Part shown: one piece after another, positions 1 through 29,165 of the stretch | Position numbering within the stretch: the first letter of the stretch is position 1 | How the letters are laid out: each line of letters starts with the position of its first letter | DNA from: Escherichia coli O127:H6 str. E2348/69 | Lineage (GTDB): Bacteria; Pseudomonadota; Gammaproteobacteria; Enterobacterales; Enterobacteriaceae | Length of the DNA: 64,000 nucleotides | Direction: 5' to 3' (one strand) | Assembly (NCBI RefSeq): GCF_000026545.1 | Contig: NC_011601.1 | Notes under the pieces: generated by a model | The model's input: the letters and a program-made list of their open reading frames with translations, nothing else | What the model was told of the DNA's origin: nothing | The model's database searches: none | Program-made: the position numbers and the translations under genes

Positions 1-2079
1 CGCTTTATCCAGCGAACGGAACAGATCTTTATAATCGATAATATAGCCATACTCTTTATCCTCACCGTCCAGCCGGTTCACCCGACAAATCGCCTGAAAC
101 AGCGTATGGTCGGTCATGGTTTTATCAATGTAGAGATAGGTGGCGGACGGCGCGTCAAAGCCAGTCAGCAGCTTATCCACCACGATAAGCAGGCGCATTT
201 GCCCCGGCTCTTCAATAAAACGCTGTTTCACTTCCCGCTCGAACTCGGTAATGCGTGCGGCGGCCTTCTCTTCACTTTGTTCAAAATAGTCAGCCAACAT
301 TTTACGATAGGTGGCGTGTTTAGAGAGTTTCTCCGTTAACCCTTCGCCTGTTTCTTCGCCTTTGATGCTGGCGGCATCGGGGCGATAGCTGGTCACAATC
401 GCTACTTTTCCTGCCAGCTCGGTCTGGCTGAACATCTCGTAAACCTTGCAGGCTTGATAGATACTGCTGCATACCAGCATGGCGTTGCCGCGCCCGTCCA
501 TCAGGCGTGGACGGGTATCCATATCCAACAAAATGTCGTTAACGATCTGCTCCAGCCGCGACTTGCTGGAGAGCAGCTTCTGCATTGATCCCCACTTTTG
601 CTTAAGCTGGGTCCTAGCTAAATTCGACAAGCCGCGAGTCTTGGCTTCAAACCAGTCATCGACCTTTTTCTCTGATGTCAGATACTGGTCAATATCGCGC
701 GCCTCATAGCGCAGATCCAGCACCACACCGTCGGCCACCGCTTCATCAAATTTATAGGTATGGATATAAGGGCCGAACACCTCAACCGACTTCTTCTTAT
801 CTTTCTTCATCAGCGGTGTGCCGGTAAAACCGATAAACAGGGCATCCGGCAGAATGGCAGTCATGGCGTTATGCAGCTTGCCGGATTGTGTGCGGTGGCA
901 CTCATCCACAAAAACAAACAGATCGCCTTTGGCGCAGAATGTTTTCGTCAGGGACTGCTGTAATTCGGTGATAAAGGCGTCGGTAGCCGCATTGTCTTCA
1001 GCTTCGCTGCGACGACCAAATTTATGCACCAGCGAGCAAATAAGCCACGGGTTAGGATGATTGAGCGTTGCGATAAGATCGTTGCCGCTGGAGGTGCGAT
1101 AAATATCTTCATTCACGCCCATAAACACGCTTTCGATCTGTTCATCCAGTTCGGTGCGGTCAGTCACAATCAACACGCGGGAGTTTGGCACATTTTCACG
1201 GATCCACTTCGCCAGCCAGACCATCGTCAGGCTTTTACCCGATCCCTGTGTGTGCCAGATAATACCGCCTTCACGACGGGCAATATGTTGTTTAGCCGCC
1301 TCGACGCCGAAGAACTGATTATGGCGGCAGAGTTTTTTCACCCCGACATCAAAGGCAATGTAATTATGGACGATATCCAACAGCCTGGATTTGCTACACA
1401 GACGACTTAAATGAAAGTCGAGTTTATGTGTATAGTCGCCAGGATTATCTTCTTTCCACTCCAGATAGTATTTTTCCGGGGTTTCGATGGTGCCGTAGCG
1501 CAGGCCCTGCGTATCGTTGCCTGCCATCACTAACTGCATAGTGGTGAAGAAATCGCGGATAAAGGTTTTCTTTTGATTATCGAGATTCTGCCGGATGCCT
1601 TCGCTGACGTGTACTGACGAACGCTTAAGTTCAATCACGCCCAGCGCAATGCCGTTAACGTACAGCACCAGATCCGGGCGCTTGCAGTACTCGCCTTTGA
1701 CCGTCACCTCATCAGCGATGGCGAAATCATTGGCTTGTGGGTTGGCCCAGTCAATCAGCCACACGGTTTGGTTCTGCTCGCCTGCGCCTTCTTTGTCTTT
1801 CACGCCGTAACGCAGCAGGCGATAGACCTCTTTATTGGCGTAATAGAGTTTTTTGCCTTCGCCCAGAGCGGCGGCGGAATCCAGTTGCCGCAACGCCCGG
1901 GTGATCAACGTATCATTAACGCCGCGCCGTTTTAGCCACGCGCTCAGTATATTAGTGTCGATGTTGCTGTTCCCGGTGTACCCGGTGCGGTGACTCAGAT
2001 GGCGGTAACCTAAATCTTCAACAAAAAACTGAATCAGACGCTGCTGTGTGGCGCGTTCGCGCTGGCCCACGGTACTCAA
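1..2079 (-). CDS. hsdR: Type I restriction enzyme R subunit (HsdR), partial; C-terminus runs off the left window edge
   Basis: Reverse-complement translation from ~2079 gives a continuous frame with helicase motifs (WHTQGSGKSLTMVWLA Walker A, FVFVDECHRTQ DEAH-like, GFTGTPL). AAGGAG lies 6 nt upstream of a TTG at 2079; alternative GTG at 2070. Not in ORF track because incomplete. Confidence 0.88.
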   Translation of the reverse strand, partial: MSTVGQRERATQQRLIQFFVEDLGYRHLSHRTGYTGNSNIDTNILSAWLKRRGVNDTLITRALRQLDSAAALGEGKKLYYANKEVYRLLRYGVKDKEGAGEQNQTVWLIDWANPQANDFAIADEVTVKGEYCKRPDLVLYVNGIALGVIELKRSSVHVSEGIRQNLDNQKKTFIRDFFTTMQLVMAGNDTQGLRYGTIETPEKYYLEWKEDNPGDYTHKLDFHLSRLCSKSRLLDIVHNYIAFDVGVKKLCRHNQFFGVEAAKQHIARREGGIIWHTQGSGKSLTMVWLAKWIRENVPNSRVLIVTDRTELDEQIESVFMGVNEDIYRTSSGNDLIATLNHPNPWLICSLVHKFGRRSEAEDNAATDAFITELQQSLTKTFCAKGDLFVFVDECHRTQSGKLHNAMTAILPDALFIGFTGTPLMKKDKKKSVEVFGPYIHTYKFDEAVADGVVLDLRYEARDIDQYLTSEKKVDDWFEAKTRGLSNLARTQLKQKWGSMQKLLSSKSRLEQIVNDILLDMDTRPRLMDGRGNAMLVCSSIYQACKVYEMFSQTELAGKVAIVTSYRPDAASIKGEETGEGLTEKLSKHATYRKMLADYFEQSEEKAAARITEFEREVKQRFIEEPGQMRLLIVVDKLLTGFDAPSATYLYIDKTMTDHTLFQAICRVNRLDGEDKEYGYIIDYKDLFRSLDKA

Positions 2080-2097
2080 AAGGCGCTCCTTAAACCC

Positions 2098-3177
2098 TCA
2101 GCAATGGAACTCCATTACGCGGTTAATGGCAAATTGCAGATTATTATTATCAAACAGCCTCAACTTACGGCTGGCCCAGCGTTCGCCCGCAGGCCACTGG
2201 TGCAGCCCTTCCTTAACGGAGTCCAGCGTTGGTTGACATTCGCCACGGCTCAGCAACCAGTCTACGGTTGCCAGCAACTCCAGACCAAACGGCGATTCAA
2301 AGCCGTCAATTAACTGGCTGACCTGCTCCAGCGCAGGTAGCCACTCTCTGGCTTCGTTGTTCAGATACGCATTAACGTGTTCTTTTTTCTGATCGTTAAA
2401 CCAGATCACATCCAGCGGTTGGCTGTCCGGGATGCGTTTCTCGGCTTTAAGATAGGTGCCGTCCAGCGCATTAAGCAGATGGTTCAGATTGGGCGCATAG
2501 GGGCCATAATAGTGAGCTTCAAACCGCAGTTTGAGGATATCGTCCTGTTGATGCTGCTCAATGGCGCGTTGTAACAGCCAGGCCAGTTTCTGGATTTCCA
2601 GTAGGCTGCACTCCATCCCCAATACCCAGTAGCGACGCACCAGTTCAGCGATGGCGGCTCTGGCGGGAGTGAGCTTTTTTACGCCAGTGCTTTTGGCAAC
2701 GTTCTGGTATTTTTCAGTCGGTTGGTAAATCAGGATATCAACGTCCTGAAGGTCGCCAAGGGCAGATTCAATCTGCGCCCGAACGTCCGGCCAGTTCAAA
2801 CCACCGTTGCCTGCGCCCAGTGGTGGAATGGCGATGGACTGCACGTTCTCTTCAATCAAAAAGCGGCGTAAGTCCTGCAAGCCATCTTCAATCCACTCCA
2901 TGCGGGAATCAGCGCGCCAGTGCTGTTTGGTCGGAAAATTAACAATCCAGCGCGGTCCCATCAGTTCCCCGGTTTCGGTAATGAACATTTTGCCGGTGAT
3001 CACCTGCTTTTGTTTGCAGGCGAGGGCATAGACTTTCATATTTTCGGGGAAGCGCTCTTTAAACATCAACGCGATGCCTTTCCCCATGACACCGACGGTA
3101 TTAACCGTATTCACCAGAGCTTCCACCGGTGCGTCCAGTAAATTGCCTTGTGTATATGTGATCATGAGAAGTACCAT
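2098..3177 (-). CDS. darG: DarG antitoxin (N-terminal macrodomain, ADP-ribosyl-DNA glycohydrolase)
   Basis: 359-aa ORF; macrodomain signature near N-terminus ([26 protein letters not shown]). Alternative ATG at 3165 gives a 4-nt ATGA overlap with the darT stop. Confidence 0.85.
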
Positions 3178-3818
3178 CCAGACCGTGTGTGAACGGACAT
3201 TGTTAGATTACGCTGAAACAGCCATTGTTCTAATTGTAACCTGACCTCTTCGCTGTAACAAATTATCCCATCCAGCAGAGAGATCGGGCAGTGTTGCCAG
3301 ATTAGCGCCTCTGCCTGATAGCGTTCAAATTTAGCCGGATCGTCTGGATCGCGGCGAAAGTCCCGTGCCTGCAAAATGGGCCAGTCGATCTGGTCCAGAC
3401 TATTCAGACTGGTGTAGTAGTTGGTCCAGTTATAGTAAGCATGGCTGTCGGTAAACACGAAGGGCACGTCGTGTGCTGCCACGTTCCGCAAGTTGCTGAC
3501 CAGAATAACGATCTCCTCATTGGGGCGTCGCTTAATGCCGCCGCGCCCGCTGTGGATGTTCATCAGCATTGGCGAGAAGGGGGTAAAATAAAACGGCACA
3601 TAGTCATGCAGTGTCCCGCCCGTTCCGACAGGTACCGGATGCCCGGCACGCTTGCCGATCAGCTCCGGGTTGCCGATATTGATCCAGTTTTCCGCCTGCA
3701 CCAGACTGTTGCCGCAGTGCAGCCCGTTATCCAGAATCCACGGGATATTGTCCCGATGGACGATACGCCAGATCAGGGCTTTTTGCGGGTTGAGGCTGGC
3801 GCTGTAGTCATAGGCCAT
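3162..3818 (-). CDS. darT: DarT toxin (DUF4433 ssDNA thymidine ADP-ribosyltransferase)
   Basis: 218-aa ORF immediately upstream of and overlapping the macrodomain gene; size and sequence as recalled for enteropathogenic E. coli DarT; ATG at 3816-3818. Confidence 0.82.
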
Positions 3819-3829
3819 AGGTTTCCCTT

Positions 3830-5191
3830 CTATATTAAGCGGGTTTTCCCGGTTAACAACTCCTGCATCATCCCCTGTTTAAGCTGACGGGTTTTGTCCA
3901 GACGCTGTTGCAGGGTCTGAATTTCCTTGTCCATATCGGAGAGGATGGTGGCGATGGCGGTTTGTTCTTCTTTTGGCGGAAATGCAAGATGTAATTTCCT
4001 GATAATAGTAAGATTCAACCCACCACGCCCCCCATCACCAGTAGATAAACTTCTCAGTTCCTCATAACGACTGTCGAGGTTATAGAACAGGAATTCTGTG
4101 GAATGATGTTTGCTGGGGAAAATCGCAGCAATAGACTGATTAGTACATAATTCAATGCGATTAATTGCTACAGTCCCTCGAGTCTTTCCTTGTCCTGCCA
4201 ATCCGACTAATACAGAATTTTTAGGCACATACTTTGTACTGGAGTTAACAAGCCCTTCGTCGGTTATATAATCGGCTACAGCATACACCTGTTTTAGGTG
4301 TAATTCGCCGGAACTCATCCAAGGATGAGTTCCTCCCCAATATGCTGAAATTTTAGTACTCGGAGTTCCACCAGCACAGCAGTCAGTAAATTGTCCAATG
4401 CTTGTGACTACCCAATCTTCAGGAATCGCCCCCAACTCGCTCTTTTTATATCCCTTAGCAGAGCCATCTTTGCGCAACGCAAACTGTGGCAAACGGGTTT
4501 TACCAGTCAGTAGTTGCTGCATTGTGGCAGTTTTGATGGACTGTTTTTTTGAGAGTAATTTTTCTAGGGATAGAATCAAGCTATCAACATTGGTTAATAC
4601 ATTAGCAATAGCCTTTTGCTCTACGATATTTTTCGGTATAGATATGCATAACTTCTCTAAAACTGAACGTTTAATCCCTTGGGCCGTTGAACCAGTCGCG
4701 CTTTCAGAAATATATGATTGAAAACGCTCTGATAATAAGATTTGGAGTATTAGTGATGGAGAAAAATTCTCTCTATCTATTTGTAAAAGAATTGTTCTCT
4801 GGCTAAGAATATATTTTTTGTTATCAGGAATAGATGCTGCATTCCCCAGAGGGGCTTCCATTGTGAAAGCTATGTCCCCTTTTTGGGGATGACCGGATGT
4901 CATCCAGCGCTTATATAGTTCTTCGGAACCAAAGTAACATTCAGTAGATAAATCTATATATCCTTTTTTAACATTAGCAGCAGAAAGGGCAACGATATCC
5001 CCATCCCCCCAATCCATTCCAAGTTTTTTGGGAGTTCTGCCGCGATAATCAATTATGTTGGTTGTCAGGTTTAATATCGTGGATACAACCCAATCCTCAG
5101 GAATCATCTCCATCTCAGTCAGCTTATACCCCGCAGGCACACCTTTCCCCACCGTACCCGACCGTTGCTCATTCAGCATTAAATCCACCAT
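3830..5191 (-). CDS. hsdS: Type I R-M specificity subunit (HsdS), two target-recognition domains
   Basis: ~453-aa ORF with the conserved LTGKTRL repeat after each TRD; ATG at 5189-5191 overlaps the hsdM stop by 1 nt (track start 5197 is an alternative GTG). Confidence 0.88.
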   Translation of the reverse strand: MVDLMLNEQRSGTVGKGVPAGYKLTEMEMIPEDWVVSTILNLTTNIIDYRGRTPKKLGMDWGDGDIVALSAANVKKGYIDLSTECYFGSEELYKRWMTSGHPQKGDIAFTMEAPLGNAASIPDNKKYILSQRTILLQIDRENFSPSLILQILLSERFQSYISESATGSTAQGIKRSVLEKLCISIPKNIVEQKAIANVLTNVDSLILSLEKLLSKKQSIKTATMQQLLTGKTRLPQFALRKDGSAKGYKKSELGAIPEDWVVTSIGQFTDCCAGGTPSTKISAYWGGTHPWMSSGELHLKQVYAVADYITDEGLVNSSTKYVPKNSVLVGLAGQGKTRGTVAINRIELCTNQSIAAIFPSKHHSTEFLFYNLDSRYEELRSLSTGDGGRGGLNLTIIRKLHLAFPPKEEQTAIATILSDMDKEIQTLQQRLDKTRQLKQGMMQELLTGKTRLI

Positions 5192-7629
5192 CACCACTCC
5201 AGCCCCATCGCCCGCAAATGCCCGGCCACTTTCTCGCTCAACGCCTCAACGGCGGCTGCAAGTGCTGGCAACGGTTCAGCATAACGCTCTTCCAGCTCCT
5301 TTACGCGCGACGCCAGTTGCTGGGTAATACGCTCTATCTCCGCTTTGATCCCTGCCTGCAATGTTGCCAGCCACTTATCCTGCACTACCAGCGTTTTAAT
5401 CGCTGCTTCATCCAGCGTGGGATAATGTTTAAATACCGCTCGATCCAACGCTTTCTGTGCGGCTTTTAGCGCTTTTTTCGCACTGGCCTCGGCCTTAATC
5501 AGCGCCAGACAGCGGTTCAGCACTGCCAGCTCATCCGGGTCGGCAGGGGTTTTCTTCAACTGTGCCAGACGGGCATTCACCAGCTTTTGCGTCACCTTAT
5601 CTTTATCGTTTTTCGCCTCAGCCAGCAGATCCTCTTCCCCTGCCTGCTCCTCGATGAATTCCACTAGCTGACGACTGGCTTCTTCACTACGCTCCTGCGC
5701 GCGGTTCAGCGCATCCAGCAGTTCCGGGAAACAGCGAATTTCCACCAGCGAACGGGGCAGCACATCGGCCTTGTAGCGCCGTTTGGTAAACTCGAAATCG
5801 TGCGTTTCTTTCCAGATGTTTTTGCCATCTTTGCCTTTCACCGGCTGAAGCTCGCGGATTTGCGCGGCGGCTTGCCAGCCATCCTGCATAATCACATACA
5901 CATCGTCCTGCATGACATCAGCCCAGTAATCCATCAGGATCTGGTACACGCTGTATTTGTTCAGCAACTCACTGTTGGCGTACTGCGCCAATAGCATTTC
6001 GCTGATATCGTGGATTAGCGCTTTGGGTTTATCTCCTTTGCGGATCTCTTCCAGACCTGCCTCTTTTACCCACGACTTAAACGGTAGCAGGCTGCGGGTG
6101 GCAAAATCCTTAAACTCCTGATGAGCCAGAATGGTCGGTTTCACCTGCTGAGCGTCCACTTGCGCCCGGCAGTAACCGGGGTGGTCGTCAGCAAACAGCA
6201 CATTACGCAGGGCAGGGAATACCCGCCAATAATCCTTCAAAGCATCTACATCGCGCACTGGAATACCGCCTTGTAAGTGCGCGGTCAGATCGTGCAAATC
6301 TTCCGGCTCTCCACTCTCGATATAACGAGGAATATTCAGGTTGTAATCATTCCCGGCGATCTCGCTGGAGGGCACCATCCGGCTGTAGCCTGGCACCGTT
6401 CGCTGATGGTTGAACACGTCCACAATACGGTGAATATCTTGGCTACGCAGGCGGTTCTTGTTGCCATCTTTGATAAAGCCCCGACTGGCGTCGATCATAA
6501 AAATGCCTTTGCGGCTGTGGGCGTGCTCTTTATCAATCACAATGATGCACGCCGGGATGCCGGTGCCGTAAAACAGGTTGGCTGGCAAACCAATAACGCC
6601 TTTGATATAGCCCTGCTTGATTAGGTTTTCACGGATATTCGCTTCGGCGTTACCGCGAAACAGTACGCCGTGGGGCAGGATTACCGCGCCTTTGCCGGTA
6701 CTTTTCAGGCTTTTAATGATATGCAACAAAAAAGCATAATCGCCGTTTTTTTCCGGCGGAATACCCCAGCCGAAGCGTTCAAACGGATCTTTTTTTGGCG
6801 TCAGCCCGTTGGTCCAGTTTTTATTGGAAAAAGGCGGGTTCGCCACGGCAAAATCGAAGGCTTTCAGTTTGCCGTTCGCCTCTTTCCACTGCGGATCGCT
6901 CAGCGTATTGCCCTGCCAGATTTTCGCGGTGGCATTGTTATGCAGAATCATGTTCATCCGCGCCAGCGCACTGGTAGCGTTATCCATCTCTTGGCCGAAA
7001 ATCGACAGTCCGCGCCGGGCTTCATCATTCACTTTCAACAGCAGCGAACCAGAGCCACAGGTTGGGTCATAAACCGTTGCATCTCGCGGCGTATCGGGAG
7101 TAATACCAATCACCTTCGCCAGAATACGTGACACCTCCGCCGGAGTGTAAAACTGTCCTTTACTCTTGCCGGATTCGGTTGCGAAGTGACGCATCAGATA
7201 TTCATAGGCATCGCCCAGCAGATCGTCGCCTTCGACCCGGTTGCTGGAGAGATCTAACCCTTCAAAGATACCGACAAGCTTGCTCAGGCGGTCAATCATT
7301 TCCTTGCCTTTGCCGAGTTTATCTTCGTCGTTAAAGTCGGCTTCGTCGATGACGCCCTTCAGGCCGTTCTCTTCCGCCAGCTTGTGGATGATTTTGTTGA
7401 TTTTATCGCCGATCTCTTTGTCATTTTTCAGCGCAACCATATCGTCAAAGCTGGCTCCTTTGGGTATCACGATCATCCCGTAAGGATCGCCTTTATACTT
7501 ATCGGAAACGTACTTCATAAACAGCAGGGTCAGTACATAGTCTTTGTACTGGCTGGCGTCCATCCCGCCACGCAGTTCGTCGCAGCTTGCCCACAGGGAA
7601 GAATAGAGTTCGGTTTTTTTGATAGCCAT
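5191..7629 (-). CDS. hsdM: Type I R-M N6-adenine DNA methyltransferase (HsdM), unusually long (812 aa) with a C-terminal coiled-coil extension
   Basis: HsdM-type N-terminus (ELYSSLWASCDELRGGMDASQYKDYVLTLLFMKYVSDKY), SAM-binding FYTP and catalytic NPPF motifs; ~280 aa alanine/lysine/glutamate-rich helical tail. Confidence 0.88.
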   Translation of the reverse strand: MAIKKTELYSSLWASCDELRGGMDASQYKDYVLTLLFMKYVSDKYKGDPYGMIVIPKGASFDDMVALKNDKEIGDKINKIIHKLAEENGLKGVIDEADFNDEDKLGKGKEMIDRLSKLVGIFEGLDLSSNRVEGDDLLGDAYEYLMRHFATESGKSKGQFYTPAEVSRILAKVIGITPDTPRDATVYDPTCGSGSLLLKVNDEARRGLSIFGQEMDNATSALARMNMILHNNATAKIWQGNTLSDPQWKEANGKLKAFDFAVANPPFSNKNWTNGLTPKKDPFERFGWGIPPEKNGDYAFLLHIIKSLKSTGKGAVILPHGVLFRGNAEANIRENLIKQGYIKGVIGLPANLFYGTGIPACIIVIDKEHAHSRKGIFMIDASRGFIKDGNKNRLRSQDIHRIVDVFNHQRTVPGYSRMVPSSEIAGNDYNLNIPRYIESGEPEDLHDLTAHLQGGIPVRDVDALKDYWRVFPALRNVLFADDHPGYCRAQVDAQQVKPTILAHQEFKDFATRSLLPFKSWVKEAGLEEIRKGDKPKALIHDISEMLLAQYANSELLNKYSVYQILMDYWADVMQDDVYVIMQDGWQAAAQIRELQPVKGKDGKNIWKETHDFEFTKRRYKADVLPRSLVEIRCFPELLDALNRAQERSEEASRQLVEFIEEQAGEEDLLAEAKNDKDKVTQKLVNARLAQLKKTPADPDELAVLNRCLALIKAEASAKKALKAAQKALDRAVFKHYPTLDEAAIKTLVVQDKWLATLQAGIKAEIERITQQLASRVKELEERYAEPLPALAAAVEALSEKVAGHLRAMGLEW

Positions 7630-7668
7630 TAAATATCTCGTTTTGCGCGATAATGTGCCGTAAGTCGG

Positions 7669-7914
7669 TTACAGCAGATCGGTATTCAGACCGGCGGCCT
7701 TTAACCGACGGGTTAAGTTACGCATTTTGCTGAATTCGGTACCGAGGCTCTGGCTCAGACCAGTGCCTTCGCAAAAGGCTTTTGCCGTAATGTGTTCCAG
7801 TTTGTCGGCATATTTAATCATTTGCAGGTGCAGCTCGACGGTGTACTGGTTACGAGGCGCACTGGAAAGTGCCTGCCGGATATGGCGATAAATCTCGTCT
7901 TCATCCATATTCAT
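7669..7914 (-). CDS. Small hypothetical protein (~81 aa) directly upstream of hsdM; possible regulator
   Basis: ORF co-oriented with hsdM and ending 40 bp before its ATG; likely start at internal ATG 7912-7914 (MNMDEDEIYRH...). The track N-terminal extension begins at a TTG and runs through the tandem repeat. Confidence 0.4.
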   Translation of the reverse strand: MNMDEDEIYRHIRQALSSAPRNQYTVELHLQMIKYADKLEHITAKAFCEGTGLSQSLGTEFSKMRNLTRRLKAAGLNTDLL

Positions 7915-7940
7915 GGTAACCACTGGTATAATGGATAAGT

Positions 7941-7967
7941 TAGCTAAATTAGCTAAATTAGCTAAAT
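7941..7967. repeat. Three tandem copies of a 9-bp unit containing the 8-bp palindrome TTAGCTAA
   Basis: TTAGCTAAA TTAGCTAAA TTAGCTAAA read directly; lies ~27 bp upstream of the small ORF start on the minus strand. Confidence 0.85.
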
Positions 7968-9059
7968 GTGGTATCAGGTTCAAGAACTACAGTGGGAGTC
8001 GGATTTGACTGCGCGATTTATGCACGTAAATGCCTTGTGGCGGATTAATGGCTGCAGTATCTTCTCCTTCCGCGCCTGCAAAATCAGGCGTCAGAATTAG
8101 CCTCCTGAAAACCGTTACAGGAGACTTCTCTATAGACTACAATCCTTGTCCCTGACTGCGATTTACTCGATCTATTGTTCGTTCCCTTATAATGCCACTA
8201 TAGATTTTACCGCCTTGGTCGACAACTGCGCCCGCTTTGCCGAATCCCTGATAGAAACCTAGGATCTTGCGCTGTAGCTTACCCTCTGCGGGCGATCTTG
8301 TACTGCTGCAACTCACGCAACACGACCTCATCCCGCCGCATCTTAACGAAAGCCTGCTCAGTGATACTCTCCCCACCATGCCAGAGCAGGTTATTTCTGA
8401 ACCTGATTCTTGTGCGAATATTGCCTCGTGCGGGCTGTGCATCATCGCCGCTCTTTGATAAGAGGCGTCAAAGGTAAGGGGCGTAGCGTTATTAGTTTGG
8501 GCTATACACTTGCGCTACAACTCTTCAAATAGCTATATATCAACAATATTTAGCCATAAACCGTCTACTTCCGTCTCAATTATACTCAAATTAAGGCATG
8601 CGGCATCTTTGTGACACATTTGTTTTTTTTATACAGGTTAGAGTTGACCTGCTCTCCGTTGATTAACTCACATTGTTGTTAACCACGTCTACTTTTAGCA
8701 CGACACTGATGCGTTAACTGAGCGAATGGTCTGCTTTGAGCGAGGAACGGACGTTCGCTTTCGGGTAACCTAACCCATATGCCAGAGGATCTCTAAGAGA
8801 TAATGGGTCGTTTAAGCGTGGCACTTACAGTATCAACGCCTCCGCACCCGACAACGTCTTGACTGCTGCAGATTCACTGAATAGACTGGTGACCTTTATC
8901 TTCATTTTGCGTGCAGCAAAATAAAGTTTTTGACTTACGAAAATCGTCGATTCGACTTAATTATACTAAGGGTTTTATGCTGACTTTTCATTGTGGGATA
9001 CACTAAATTAGTGAGATGAGAATTTATCTAACTGTCATTAACATAAGTAGGATTTAAAA

Positions 9060-9428
9060 ATGGCTAATAGCGAAATTGTTCCGTTTTCTGAAATTGTTAC
9101 AAGCAAAATAGACCTCAATCAAGCTGTAGCTCAAGGTCAAGAGATGACTGATACTCTTAAAAAAATGGGTATCAAAGAAGCGACATTTGATAGTGGAGCT
9201 TACTATAAACATGATCACGAATCGCAGACCACTACTCTTGCAGCTGATGGAATCTTGATGCGGCAGAGCCTCCACATTACAACAGTTATTTTCCGTAACG
9301 AAGGAAGTACTGAACAACAAGCTTTAGAGGAGCTTAATGCTGGTTCTCTGACACAAAAAACCTTAGGTGCATTCTCTGGAGTCTCTCAACAGAGAGCGTC
9401 TGAGCTACTCCAAATTGAAAAAGAATAA
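9060..9428 (+). CDS. Hypothetical protein (122 aa) with a C-terminal helix-turn-helix-like segment
   Basis: ORF in a low-GC block; AGGA ribosome-binding site upstream; C-terminal TQKTLGAFSGVSQQRASELLQIE resembles XRE-type HTH. Confidence 0.5.
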   Translation: MANSEIVPFSEIVTSKIDLNQAVAQGQEMTDTLKKMGIKEATFDSGAYYKHDHESQTTTLAADGILMRQSLHITTVIFRNEGSTEQQALEELNAGSLTQKTLGAFSGVSQQRASELLQIEKE

Positions 9429-9497
9429 TTATAAATAGGTTAGTAACGGCAGTTTTCTGCCGTTACTAAGAGTATTTACTCAAAATTAGGGAGTATT

Positions 9498-9884
9498 ATG
9501 GGATTCAATGACCAGCCCAAAAACCTGAAAAAATCCATTAACGATAAATATAACAGAAGGGTAAAGTCACTTTCTCGGCATCTCGAGGATTTTATTTATC
9601 ATGCAGAAATGAAACTGGACGAATCTATTTCTGGAAGGATTTATCGCAGAAGCGAGATTGAGTCAATTGTTGAGAAAGTAAAAGAATTGATGGCTATCCT
9701 TCCGGCTTCAGATGAACCTCCTTCAATTAATTTTGATATTCTTGAAATCATTGAGAATGCAACAGAAGAAACTCAGCGCATTTTATCAGAAGGACAAAAA
9801 TTCTTCGACAACCTCTCTCCTGAAGAATTGGCAGAAATGATATCAACATTCCAACAAAATAAAAAAGATAGTGAATCTGAGTGA
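9498..9884 (+). CDS. Hypothetical protein (128 aa), acidic and predicted helical
   Basis: ORF 70 bp downstream of and co-oriented with the previous ORF; GGGAG ribosome-binding site; no recognisable motif. Confidence 0.45.
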   Translation: MGFNDQPKNLKKSINDKYNRRVKSLSRHLEDFIYHAEMKLDESISGRIYRRSEIESIVEKVKELMAILPASDEPPSINFDILEIIENATEETQRILSEGQKFFDNLSPEELAEMISTFQQNKKDSESE

Positions 9885-29077: not shown

Positions 29078-29165
29078 TGGCGGTGAGGGGGGGATTCGAA
29101 CCCCCGATACGTTGCCGTATACACACTTTCCAGGCGTGCTCCTTCAGCCACTCGGACACCTCACC
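29078..29165 (-). tRNA. serX: tRNA-Ser (anticodon GGA)
   Basis: Reverse complement reads GGTGAGGTGTCCGAGTGGCTGAAGGAGCACGCCTGGAAAGTGTGTATACGGCAACGTATCGGGGGTTCGAATCCCCCCCTCACCGCCA; next to ghrA as in K-12. Confidence 0.9.

Follow-up and report, generated by a model that had tools for sequence, protein, structure and literature searches.

A gene-free kilobase in a decayed genomic island of enteropathogenic Escherichia coli is a mosaic and probably the seam of two independently inherited modules

Escherichia coli O127:H6 str. E2348/69 (enteropathogenic E. coli, EPEC) carries, in an island by tRNA-Ser, about one kilobase of DNA in which no gene is annotated. We analyzed this stretch within 64,000 nucleotides of contig NC_011601.1, called here the window (a window position equals the NZ_LT827011.1 position minus 1,152,000). 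The host island is a heavily decayed mosaic which terminates at the tRNA-Ser (29078–29165). To the left of the stretch, all on the minus strand, lie an M48 peptidase gene, hsdR, darG, darT, hsdS, hsdM and a gene for a 79-residue HTH_73 protein, which is the final annotated gene of this hsd-DarTG module. To the right follow two hypothetical genes for proteins of 122 and 128 amino acids (aa), debris of IS3, IS66 and IS30 elements, and the GTPase/Ag43/YeeS-T-U-CbtA backbone that is usual in such islands. Because the RefSeq/PGAP annotation leaves the interval from the HTH_73 gene to the 122-aa gene (9060) blank, the empty stretch comprises positions 7909–9059 (1151 bp). This kilobase is a mosaic and not a single feature or functional unit. 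It contains the remains of an antisense-RNA locus, a pseudogene, and a pair of short hairpins (HP1 and HP2, 8687–8752) at which, as we argue below, two modules of separate origin probably meet.

The original prediction for this locus, made from the sequence alone, was that no credible gene exists between 8000 and 9059. This claim holds, and even for the slightly longer stretch left empty by PGAP. The longest open reading frames (ORFs) inside it code for 102 aa (8137–8445, minus strand), 63 aa (8267–8458, plus strand) and 59 aa (8298–8477, plus strand), and no ORF of 7909–9059 matches a Pfam model at E ≤ 1. The missing gene is not a chance fluctuation, since about 250 other complete E. coli genomes share the block and leave it unannotated save for short fragment ORFs. 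The shift from GC-normal to AT-rich composition that had also been described is real but stepwise: the GC content is 0.51 in 8134–8440, 0.39 in 8441–8630, 0.51 at the hairpins (8692–8760), and 0.37 in 8833–9059, which equals that of the downstream genes (0.37). Two features had escaped the prediction, namely the remnant of antisense-RNA immunity at 8059–8133 and the coincidence of the GC step with a sharp junction of two independently inherited modules at a hairpin repeat.

This junction is defined by the homology of its two sides. The block from 7900 to 8752/8761 is 90–100% identical in about 250 complete E. coli genomes, where it always adjoins hsd-DarTG and where homology always stops at one place. 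What comes after this block varies: O157 strains contain a 459-aa gene, WCHEC025943 contains ParA and two further genes, and SCU-104 contains a 314-aa gene. The segment 8729–10151 is 95% identical to two metagenomic contigs (L170 and L171), whose left flank is unrelated. Since homology on the left ends at 8752–8761 and homology on the right begins at 8729, the two modules overlap in 24 nucleotides, 8729–8752, and these are HP2. Contigs L170 and L171 hold the complete right-hand cassette with genes of 122, 128 and 605 aa. In L170, an intact right-end HP1 after the 605-aa gene closes this EPEC-type cassette. In relatives of the EPEC locus the cassette is closed by HP1 plus TGTCAGATGAGG or AGCCAGATTAGG, just ahead of the GTPase gene. 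Since 8729–9059 is inherited with the cassette, it represents the cassette's own non-coding front. The features on both sides of the junction are listed in Table 1.

Table 1. Features of the stretch and its surroundings (window positions, unless a related locus is named).
Feature	Coordinates	Strand	Basis or remark
HTH_73 gene, 79 aa	7669–7908	−	PGAP coding sequence; Pfam PF24718, 99.6 bits; phrog_30666
9-bp tandem repeat TTAGCTAAA, about 3.5 copies	7936–7970		repeat family D1, palindromes I9/I10
IsrK/c4-a1b1-type leader relic: two stem-loops joined without a gap to the ribosome-binding region of the gene that follows	8059–8133	+	Rfam matches below threshold
Pseudogene of a 153–156-aa enterobacterial hypothetical-protein family (e.g. 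WP_000201175.1)	8136–8440	+	three-frame translation, tblastn
AT-rich spacer, GC 0.39	8441–8630		conserved within the hsd-DarTG block family only
Segment L	8631–8691	+	common to a K. pneumoniae IncFII/IncR plasmid, there abutting a truncated transposase gene
HP1, first hairpin of the twin, degenerate copy GTCTACT-TTTAGCACGA-CACTGAT	8687–8710	+	regular-expression scan, alignment
HP2, second hairpin, imperfect, GTCTGCT-TTGAGCGAGG-AACGGAC	8729–8752	+	module overlap, pattern scan
Element R, about 105 nt	8728–8832	+	follows HP2 in cassettes of various content
AT-rich 5' non-coding region of the 122-aa/128-aa operon	8833–9059	+	95% identical together with the genes in L170/L171
Cassette genes, 122 aa (9060–9428) and 128 aa (9498–9884)	9060–9884	+	PGAP coding sequences, conserved
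Stump of third cassette gene, 67 aa (605 aa in relatives)	9904–10107	+	L170 homology ends at 10151; ORF list
Truncated HP1 (GTCCGCT-CTTGGCAC) at the shortened right end of the cassette	10128–10142	+	sequence; IS3/IS66/IS30 debris after it
Gene of the ~200-aa recombinase in related loci	L036 57–665; L040 9938–10546; L166–L168 6001–6603; L037 10001–10603		

Both hairpins consist of a 7-bp stem and a 10-nt loop, and eighteen bases separate them in the window. The HP1 copy of EPEC deviates from the consensus found elsewhere (GTCCGCT-YNTGGCACRR-AGCGGAC), whose HP2 counterpart reads GTCYGCT-NTGAGCGARRA-RCGGAM. An nhmmer profile of the twin matches the window at 8692–8760 (E 4e-17). The canonical twin occurs at 3426 places in 2231 of 5426 complete E. 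coli genomes (41%), with a median of one and a maximum of five copies per genome. Among the E. coli matches listed, no annotated feature overlies it. Where the twin profile occurs in several copies per locus, these copies have a single orientation and are separated by one to three unrelated genes. With the pattern of HP2 alone we retrieved more than 120 IMG/VR contigs among the matches listed. In these contigs the sequence past ...CGGAM(R)TT differs in nearly every copy, and the left flanks belong to a few recurrent backbones, namely lambdoid prophage, the twin, or P2-like phage, in which the FI upstream region directly adjoins.

The arrangement of the hairpins follows a strict order. Two or more copies are present in 34 of 146 loci, and in 30 of these 34 all copies point in the same direction. 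Read along the motif strand, 64 neighbor pairs have the order HP2–cargo–HP1 with 0.6 to 6 kb of cargo, 18 pairs are adjacent HP1–HP2 twins, and a single pair is a distant HP1–HP2. Unrelated cargo is bracketed in this way in phage P2, lambdoid prophages, islands and plasmids. One variant of phage P2, for example, has HP2 next to FI and HP1 next to the gene for tail-fibre assembly; the cargo of the FI–G interval lies between them, and the backbone flanks read TCTGACA|...|TGTCAGA. In one P2-like prophage contig (L119), the cargo that separates an HP2 copy (5331–5353) from the tail-fibre side, about 300–2750 nt downstream of HP2, looks like a DarT/DarG-like pair. On visual inspection of the N-termini, it appears to consist of a macro-domain protein and a DUF4433-like protein, the kind of system that is also present in the left module of EPEC.

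Pairing of the arms was assessed in 41 copies of the twin, in which 84.6% of the cells are paired as compared to 35–47% with a slid partner. Covariation gives a modest excess, which is suggestive but not decisive: 8 cells show a double change versus 3.8 ± 1.8 in shuffled alignments (reached in 11 of 500 shuffles), and 17 pair types occur versus 13.2 (9 of 500). Depending on the measure, 9 to 34 of 500 shuffles reach the observed value. We dismissed a sigma-54 promoter in the HP1 loop (TGGCAC) on inspection only, because no GC element lies at the proper distance. A relationship to ERIC was considered as well, but nothing in the window matches the ERIC2 primer.

A candidate enzyme was found in locus L036. 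Divergent from the first motif copy and directly beside it, this locus codes for a 202-aa protein which is essentially a bare tyrosine-recombinase catalytic domain (PF00589, 68.5 bits). Members of this family of about 200 aa are 77–95% identical across Enterobacterales, Proteus/Providencia and marine gammaproteobacteria. Their genes sit in the cargo regions of prophages, islands and integrative and conjugative elements, with genes for TIR, SIR2, SMC-like and DUF3800 proteins as neighbors. In L036, L040, L063, L115 and L166–L168 an HP1-like and an HP2-like end flank the recombinase gene. Read antisense to the gene, this unit starts with an HP1-like sequence (GTCCGCT-YNTGGCACAG) and a terminator-like palindrome and finishes with an HP2-like sequence (...TTATGAGCGAGGARYGGAM). 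Such ends were found in E. coli, Proteus and several viral contigs. Since the recombinase unit has HP1-like and HP2-like ends, the 70-nt twin looks like these ends without the gene.

On the left side of the junction the stretch contains a decayed gene, as the original prediction had considered. A tblastn search with an intact 156-aa relative (L007 9023–9493) matched 8136–8440 with an E value of 1e-15 over residues 3–102, in pieces that occupy all three plus-strand frames with stops between them. The pieces correspond to residues 3–18, 16–55, approximately 57–96, and 97–102, with at least three frame changes. The start codon is gone, with TAG/ACT at the position homologous to ATG, and similarity to the family stops near 8440, at about residue 102. 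At the DNA level, the identity is 78.8% over 8109–8431. The family of 153–156 aa has 608 homologues in Enterobacterales and contains no Pfam domain; in intact islands its gene comes after 'Ash'/C4 and before an HTH_35 and an HTH_3 gene. Because pieces of the pseudogene lie there, the plus-strand ORF 8267–8458 is a genuine in-frame fragment, as had been suspected for the ORFs of 8137–8458. The suspicion did not hold for the 102-aa ORF on the minus strand, which is only antisense to the pseudogene. Between EPEC and WCHEC025943 (L006) the pseudogene segment is 90.7% identical and contains indels, compared to 97.7–99.8% identity for the hsd and dar genes; this difference is consistent with relaxed constraint.

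Directly upstream of the pseudogene and divergent from the HTH_73 gene lies the relic of an RNA locus. An Rfam scan returned only two matches, both to 8059–8133 and both below threshold: c4-a1b1 (RF03163) with 34.3 bits against a gathering score of 46.7, and isrK (RF01394) with 33.7 bits against 50. Both 5' stem-loops align, including the conserved GCAAAAUC loop, with one non-standard pair in stem 2. The 3' intrinsic terminator of IsrK is absent at the relic, where 7 unaligned bases replace the terminator region of the model, and C4 RNA (RF01695) has no match at E ≤ 1 in window positions 7000–10500. A weak E. coli match annotated as 'ash family protein' led us to an intact relative of this locus in strain F2_81 (L005). 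This relative contains isrK (67.2 bits) and C4 (71.8 bits) above threshold, c4-a1b1 (41.7 bits) below threshold, and the terminator that is missing in EPEC. Downstream of isrK-C4 follows AAACCGTTACAGGAGAC...ATG, which is the ribosome-binding site and then the start of the next gene. Alignment of EPEC with L005 revealed that the left flank of the first AAACCGTTACAGG copy is joined to the right flank of the second. We infer that a deletion of about 180 bp between these two direct repeats would have removed the IsrK terminator and the C4 RNA. The same event would have placed the a1/b1 stem-loops directly against the ribosome-binding site of the gene behind them, and this gene would then have lost its start codon and reading frame.

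The immI locus of phages P1 and P7 has the order a1/b1, c4, a2/b2, icd-ant. The C4 RNA gene is located between the a1/b1 and a2/b2 target copies, and the target of the RNA is the ribosome-binding region of the downstream gene. Like P1/P7 C4 and IsrK of Salmonella Gifsy-1, the EPEC relic aligns with both stem-loops of the c4-a1b1 and isrK models, is homologous to the isrK-C4-gene locus of F2_81, and has the first gene of the controlled operon next to it. Unlike these systems, it remains under both gathering scores, contains neither C4 RNA nor a terminator, and its controlled gene is a pseudogene. Judged by this homology, 8059–8440 is what remains of a C4/IsrK antisense-RNA immunity locus of the phage (P1/P4) type, hence a fossil instead of a functional member of this kind. 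Most likely it is inert and survives by hitch-hiking alongside selected defence genes. The fossil itself is minor, but it illustrates that a conserved ORF-free kilobase beside a defence operon can be dead freight instead of a regulator.

The search for intact relatives also yielded an observation on annotation. Coding sequences called 'ash family protein' (Pfam PF10554, Phage_ASH) overlie the C4 antisense RNA gene; in L005 the coding sequence spans 5860–6045 and the RNA 5883–5971 (C4, 71.8 bits). Further such calls are found in L007 (8887–9045) and L016 (7865–8023). The Phage_ASH protein family may therefore be a translation artefact of a conserved RNA gene, and the calls suggest a recurring mis-annotation of this RNA gene as protein.

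On the right side of the junction, HP2 is followed by element R. The cassettes headed by R contain the 122-aa operon, an acidic gene of 111 aa, DUF2971, or an IS110 transposase gene. A Klebsiella plasmid has R 100 nt upstream of its IS110 transposase gene, and R was therefore considered as an IS110 bridge RNA. We dropped this assignment because R is also located ahead of the 122-aa operon, the 111-aa gene, DUF2971 and a gene for a secreted protein. We likewise rejected a structured RNA for R, since neither thermodynamics (z-score −0.21) nor covariation (0.124 versus 0.122 in shuffles, 15 copies) gave a signal. R or HP2 might also represent the 5' end of a protein (MSEERKF...), because the variation is codon-like; we discarded this idea because ORFs in this frame are short (median 16 aa) and most copies of R contain an in-frame TAA. 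The 122-aa and 128-aa genes are, judged by their conservation, real. A search gave 29 homologues of 115–127 aa with 91–100% query coverage, and the gene pair or triplet is conserved.

Taken together, this anatomy points to the stretch as the seam of two independently inherited modules in a decayed island by tRNA-Ser, with the HP1–spacer–HP2 twin as a cassette-boundary recombination site, and we consider this reading probable. The left module, up to 8752, comprises the M48 peptidase gene, hsdR, darG, darT, hsdS, hsdM and the HTH_73 gene plus the dead C4/IsrK remains. The right module, from 8729, consists of HP2, the 105-nt R, the AT-rich promoter or leader region, the 122-aa and 128-aa genes, the stump of the 605-aa gene, and a truncated HP1. 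From the order and orientation of the hairpins and from the ends of the recombinase unit, we infer a role in recombination for HP1/HP2 and for the small enzyme. Cassettes of the form HP2–cargo–HP1 would be exchanged at HP1–spacer–HP2 twins, and the likely enzyme would be the tyrosine recombinase of about 200 aa. As EPEC lacks a gene for this recombinase, the enzyme would have to act in trans. A more general proposal, which we put forward only tentatively and with more doubt than belief, is that HP1 and HP2 could be the paired ends used by a cassette-exchange system that is widespread among Enterobacterales and essentially uncharacterised. In this system HP2–cargo–HP1 units, often with anti-phage genes, would be moved at HP1–spacer–HP2 junctions by a dedicated ~200-aa recombinase in trans.

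Several observations weigh against the seam as a site of dedicated recombination. The EPEC window contains no copy of the recombinase gene, and most motif-bearing loci also lack it: the gene is present in about 7 of 121 viral loci, and its marine relatives have an HP1-like end only. The link between recombinase and hairpins may be coincidental, or the recombinase may be merely another cargo gene. The count of 64 to 1 for the cassette order was obtained without correction for redundant prophages. Since the HP2 copies were collected by means of an HP2 pattern, the search itself censors their variation. Covariation of the hairpins is marginal, and several variable positions in the arms disrupt a pair that no second change restores. 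The variation is also compatible with a short reading frame, SA(L/M/V)SE(E/K)R(T/K), in ORFs which with a median of 16 aa are too short for genes. Finally, homologous recombination at short stretches of conserved sequence could, with no special enzyme, produce breakpoints that are sharp and shared.

This last possibility is part of an alternative reading, according to which the hairpins are terminators or insulators between cargo genes and the breakpoints arise from ordinary homologous recombination there. A 7-bp stem with a 10-nt loop and the T-rich run (GTTCGTTTTC) that often follows HP2 would suit a terminator, the hairpins of P2 occupy the interval that separates the FI promoter region from the end of the tail-fibre operon, and short conserved sequences can anchor homologous exchange. 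Yet a scan for intrinsic terminators called only 8387–8405 (plus) and 9440–9469 (minus) and nothing at 8687–8760, the orientation of the hairpins is fixed whereas cargo genes lie on either strand, and the loop sequences are conserved. Since the order HP2–cargo–HP1 and the precision of the breakpoints are also not expected of generic terminators, we consider this explanation unlikely. We judge it similarly improbable that the twin is a non-autonomous element resembling a miniature inverted-repeat transposable element, which would derive from the ~0.8-kb recombinase-encoding unit and insert alone, with cargo mobilised secondarily. The unit, a candidate autonomous parent, carries its gene between an HP1-like left and an HP2-like right end, and the twin has those ends with a spacer of 13–20 nt; both flanks of twin copies vary, and the motif occurs at 3426 places in E. 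coli genomes. However, cargo with one HP2 at one end and one HP1 at the other fits cassette boundaries better than insertion of a whole element, and the copy number per genome is low. Neither a target-site duplication nor a terminal inverted repeat was identified, with no comparison of empty sites made.

Two further readings concern the kilobase as a whole. Under the first, which the original prediction had raised, it would serve the 9060 gene as a long 5' leader or as a non-coding RNA that regulates this gene. In one sense the leader stood the comparison, because 8729–9059 is co-inherited with the 122-aa and 128-aa genes at 95% identity in an otherwise unrelated context. A promoter-like site is present at 8859–8887 (TTGACT-17-TAGACT, 9 of 12 matches), and segments within R can pair. 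But positions 7909–8752 belong to the other module and occur with unrelated downstream genes, Rfam matches the relic alone and finds nothing credible in 8440–9070, and the promoter-like site is not above chance (4 sites in the scan versus 4.0 expected). Nor did we find evidence of a structured RNA in 8729–9059: the fold z-score is −0.2 on the plus and −0.3 on the minus strand, and the copies of R covary no better than shuffles. We therefore regard a leader or RNA spanning the whole stretch as very unlikely. The idea that the minus-strand ORF 8137–8445 is a real unannotated gene deserves next to no credence. It is the longest ORF of the stretch and starts with ATG, but no Pfam model matches it, its sequence is the exact antisense of a pseudogene that can be demonstrated, and its region carries indels between close relatives. 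PGAP calls no such gene in E2348/69 or its relatives, where the sole coding sequence called in one relative is a fragment on the plus strand.

A cassette system bounded by hairpins invites comparison with integrons. As in integron cassettes, small unrelated cargo units are parted by a structured repeat in a single orientation (30 of 34 multi-copy loci; order 64 to 1) and with sharp breakpoints. A tyrosine recombinase gene adjoins some HP arrays, divergent from the first site in L036, and the cargo includes defence-type genes (DarTG, PLD nuclease, TIR, SIR2). Unlike attC sites, which are conserved in structure, the HP repeats are conserved in sequence, and by eye we found no RYYYAAC/GTTRRRY core sites: HP2 is followed by GTTCGCT, GTTTACA, ATTGCTA and similar sequences without an inverse core. 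Each HP unit has two types of end (HP2 5', HP1 3'), its cargo genes may lie on either strand, and the arrays sit inside prophages, satellites, islands and plasmids and not on an integron platform. The hairpin system thus resembles integron cassettes in its workings but does not qualify as an integron. The recombinase itself scores 15.9 bits against the integron-integrase model TIGR02249, which has a cut-off of 265. With about 200 aa and little beyond the catalytic domain it resembles DNA invertases of the FimB/FimE type, to which it gives weak model matches (24.9 bits). In contrast to these enzymes, it remains far under the cut-offs (222), the HP sites are direct and not inverted, and no invertible segment was seen.

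The closest parallel is provided by the variable loci of P2-like phages (Z/fun, TO), because HP2 and HP1 bracket the FI–G cargo in the P2 variant and in many P2-like prophage contigs. Site-specific recombination at the P2 variable loci has reportedly been proposed already, to judge by the title of a 2004 article by Nilsson et al., and part of the HP junction may, by the same title, have been described for P2. The FI–G position of P2 is the known variable Z/fun locus, which is rich in defence genes, and the hotspots of P2 and P4 are reservoirs of such genes (Rousset et al. 2022, PMC9122126). Hairpins, repeats or recombination sites are not mentioned in this paper or in a 2026 preprint on hotspots (10.64898/2026.02.27.708500), and a literature search for the motif as a literal string gave no match. 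The kilobase is now largely explained by ordinary parts, a decayed gene and RNA locus plus the leader of the next cassette, and the hairpin junction 8687–8752 is the feature that deserves follow-up. If it is a recombination site, HP1/HP2 would provide a concrete mechanism, with defined sites and a candidate enzyme, for the rapid turnover of cargo at the defence hotspots of phages and satellites. Base-pair-precise cargo swaps in P2-like phages, lambdoid prophages, P4-type islands and plasmids would find an explanation, with EPEC 8687–8752 as one such junction, and the HP repeat could serve as a simple sequence tag for new cargo cassettes.

Between the pseudogene and the hairpins, the AT-rich spacer 8441–8630 has no match in phages or in Rfam, and the phage collection contains no match to 8440–9060 at all. 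Weak similarity to segment L was found ahead of other twin-hairpin copies. Part of this segment, TTGACCTGCTCTCCGTTGATTAA (8647–8668), has an inverted near-copy, TTAATCAACGGGAGCACGTCAG, beside the Proteus recombinase unit in L168, about 120 nt past its HP2-like end; TTGACCTGCTCTCCGTTGATTAA may be a third component of the junction element. Three other origins were tried and rejected. Positions 8470–9059 show no tblastx or blastn similarity to the HTH_35 and HTH_3 genes of intact islands, 8440–8640 has no similarity to the end of the truncated transposase that neighbors L in the Klebsiella plasmid, and no inverted copy of L, as expected for a transposon end, was found elsewhere in the window.

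The commonest gene behind R codes for a very acidic protein of 111 aa (MNNIPSMPQLGIYVSKIDP...DDDDDSPDDE...) and starts about 85 nt after R (loci L021, L022, L024, L026, L031 and L034–L036). This protein matches no family, and its composition recalls DNA-mimic anti-restriction proteins. The 122-aa/128-aa(/605-aa) cassette (window 9060–10107; L170 5001–8029; L169 5001–5762) was recovered from Pectobacterium, Cellvibrio, Stenotrophomonas and also from metagenomes. Neither Pfam nor PHROG nor NCBIfam gives a match to it; judged by where it sits, it is a candidate defence cassette. Copies and fragments of IS3, IS66 (ISEc47), IS30 and again IS3 fill 10899–17561, between the shortened cassette and the GTPase/Ag43 backbone, and this pile-up is probably the reason why the right end of the cassette was lost.

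At the opposite border of the stretch, the TTAGCTAAA array is located between the HTH_73 gene and the IsrK-like relic. Its unit is partly palindromic, and the array may serve the HTH protein as an operator. The adjoining darT-darG pair is embedded in a type I restriction-modification operon (hsdR-darG-darT-hsdS-hsdM) with the M48 peptidase gene and the HTH_73 gene at its two ends. This M48-to-HTH_73 module (window 1–7908, minus strand) is 98–100% identical across about 250 E. coli genomes, with a variable hsdS.

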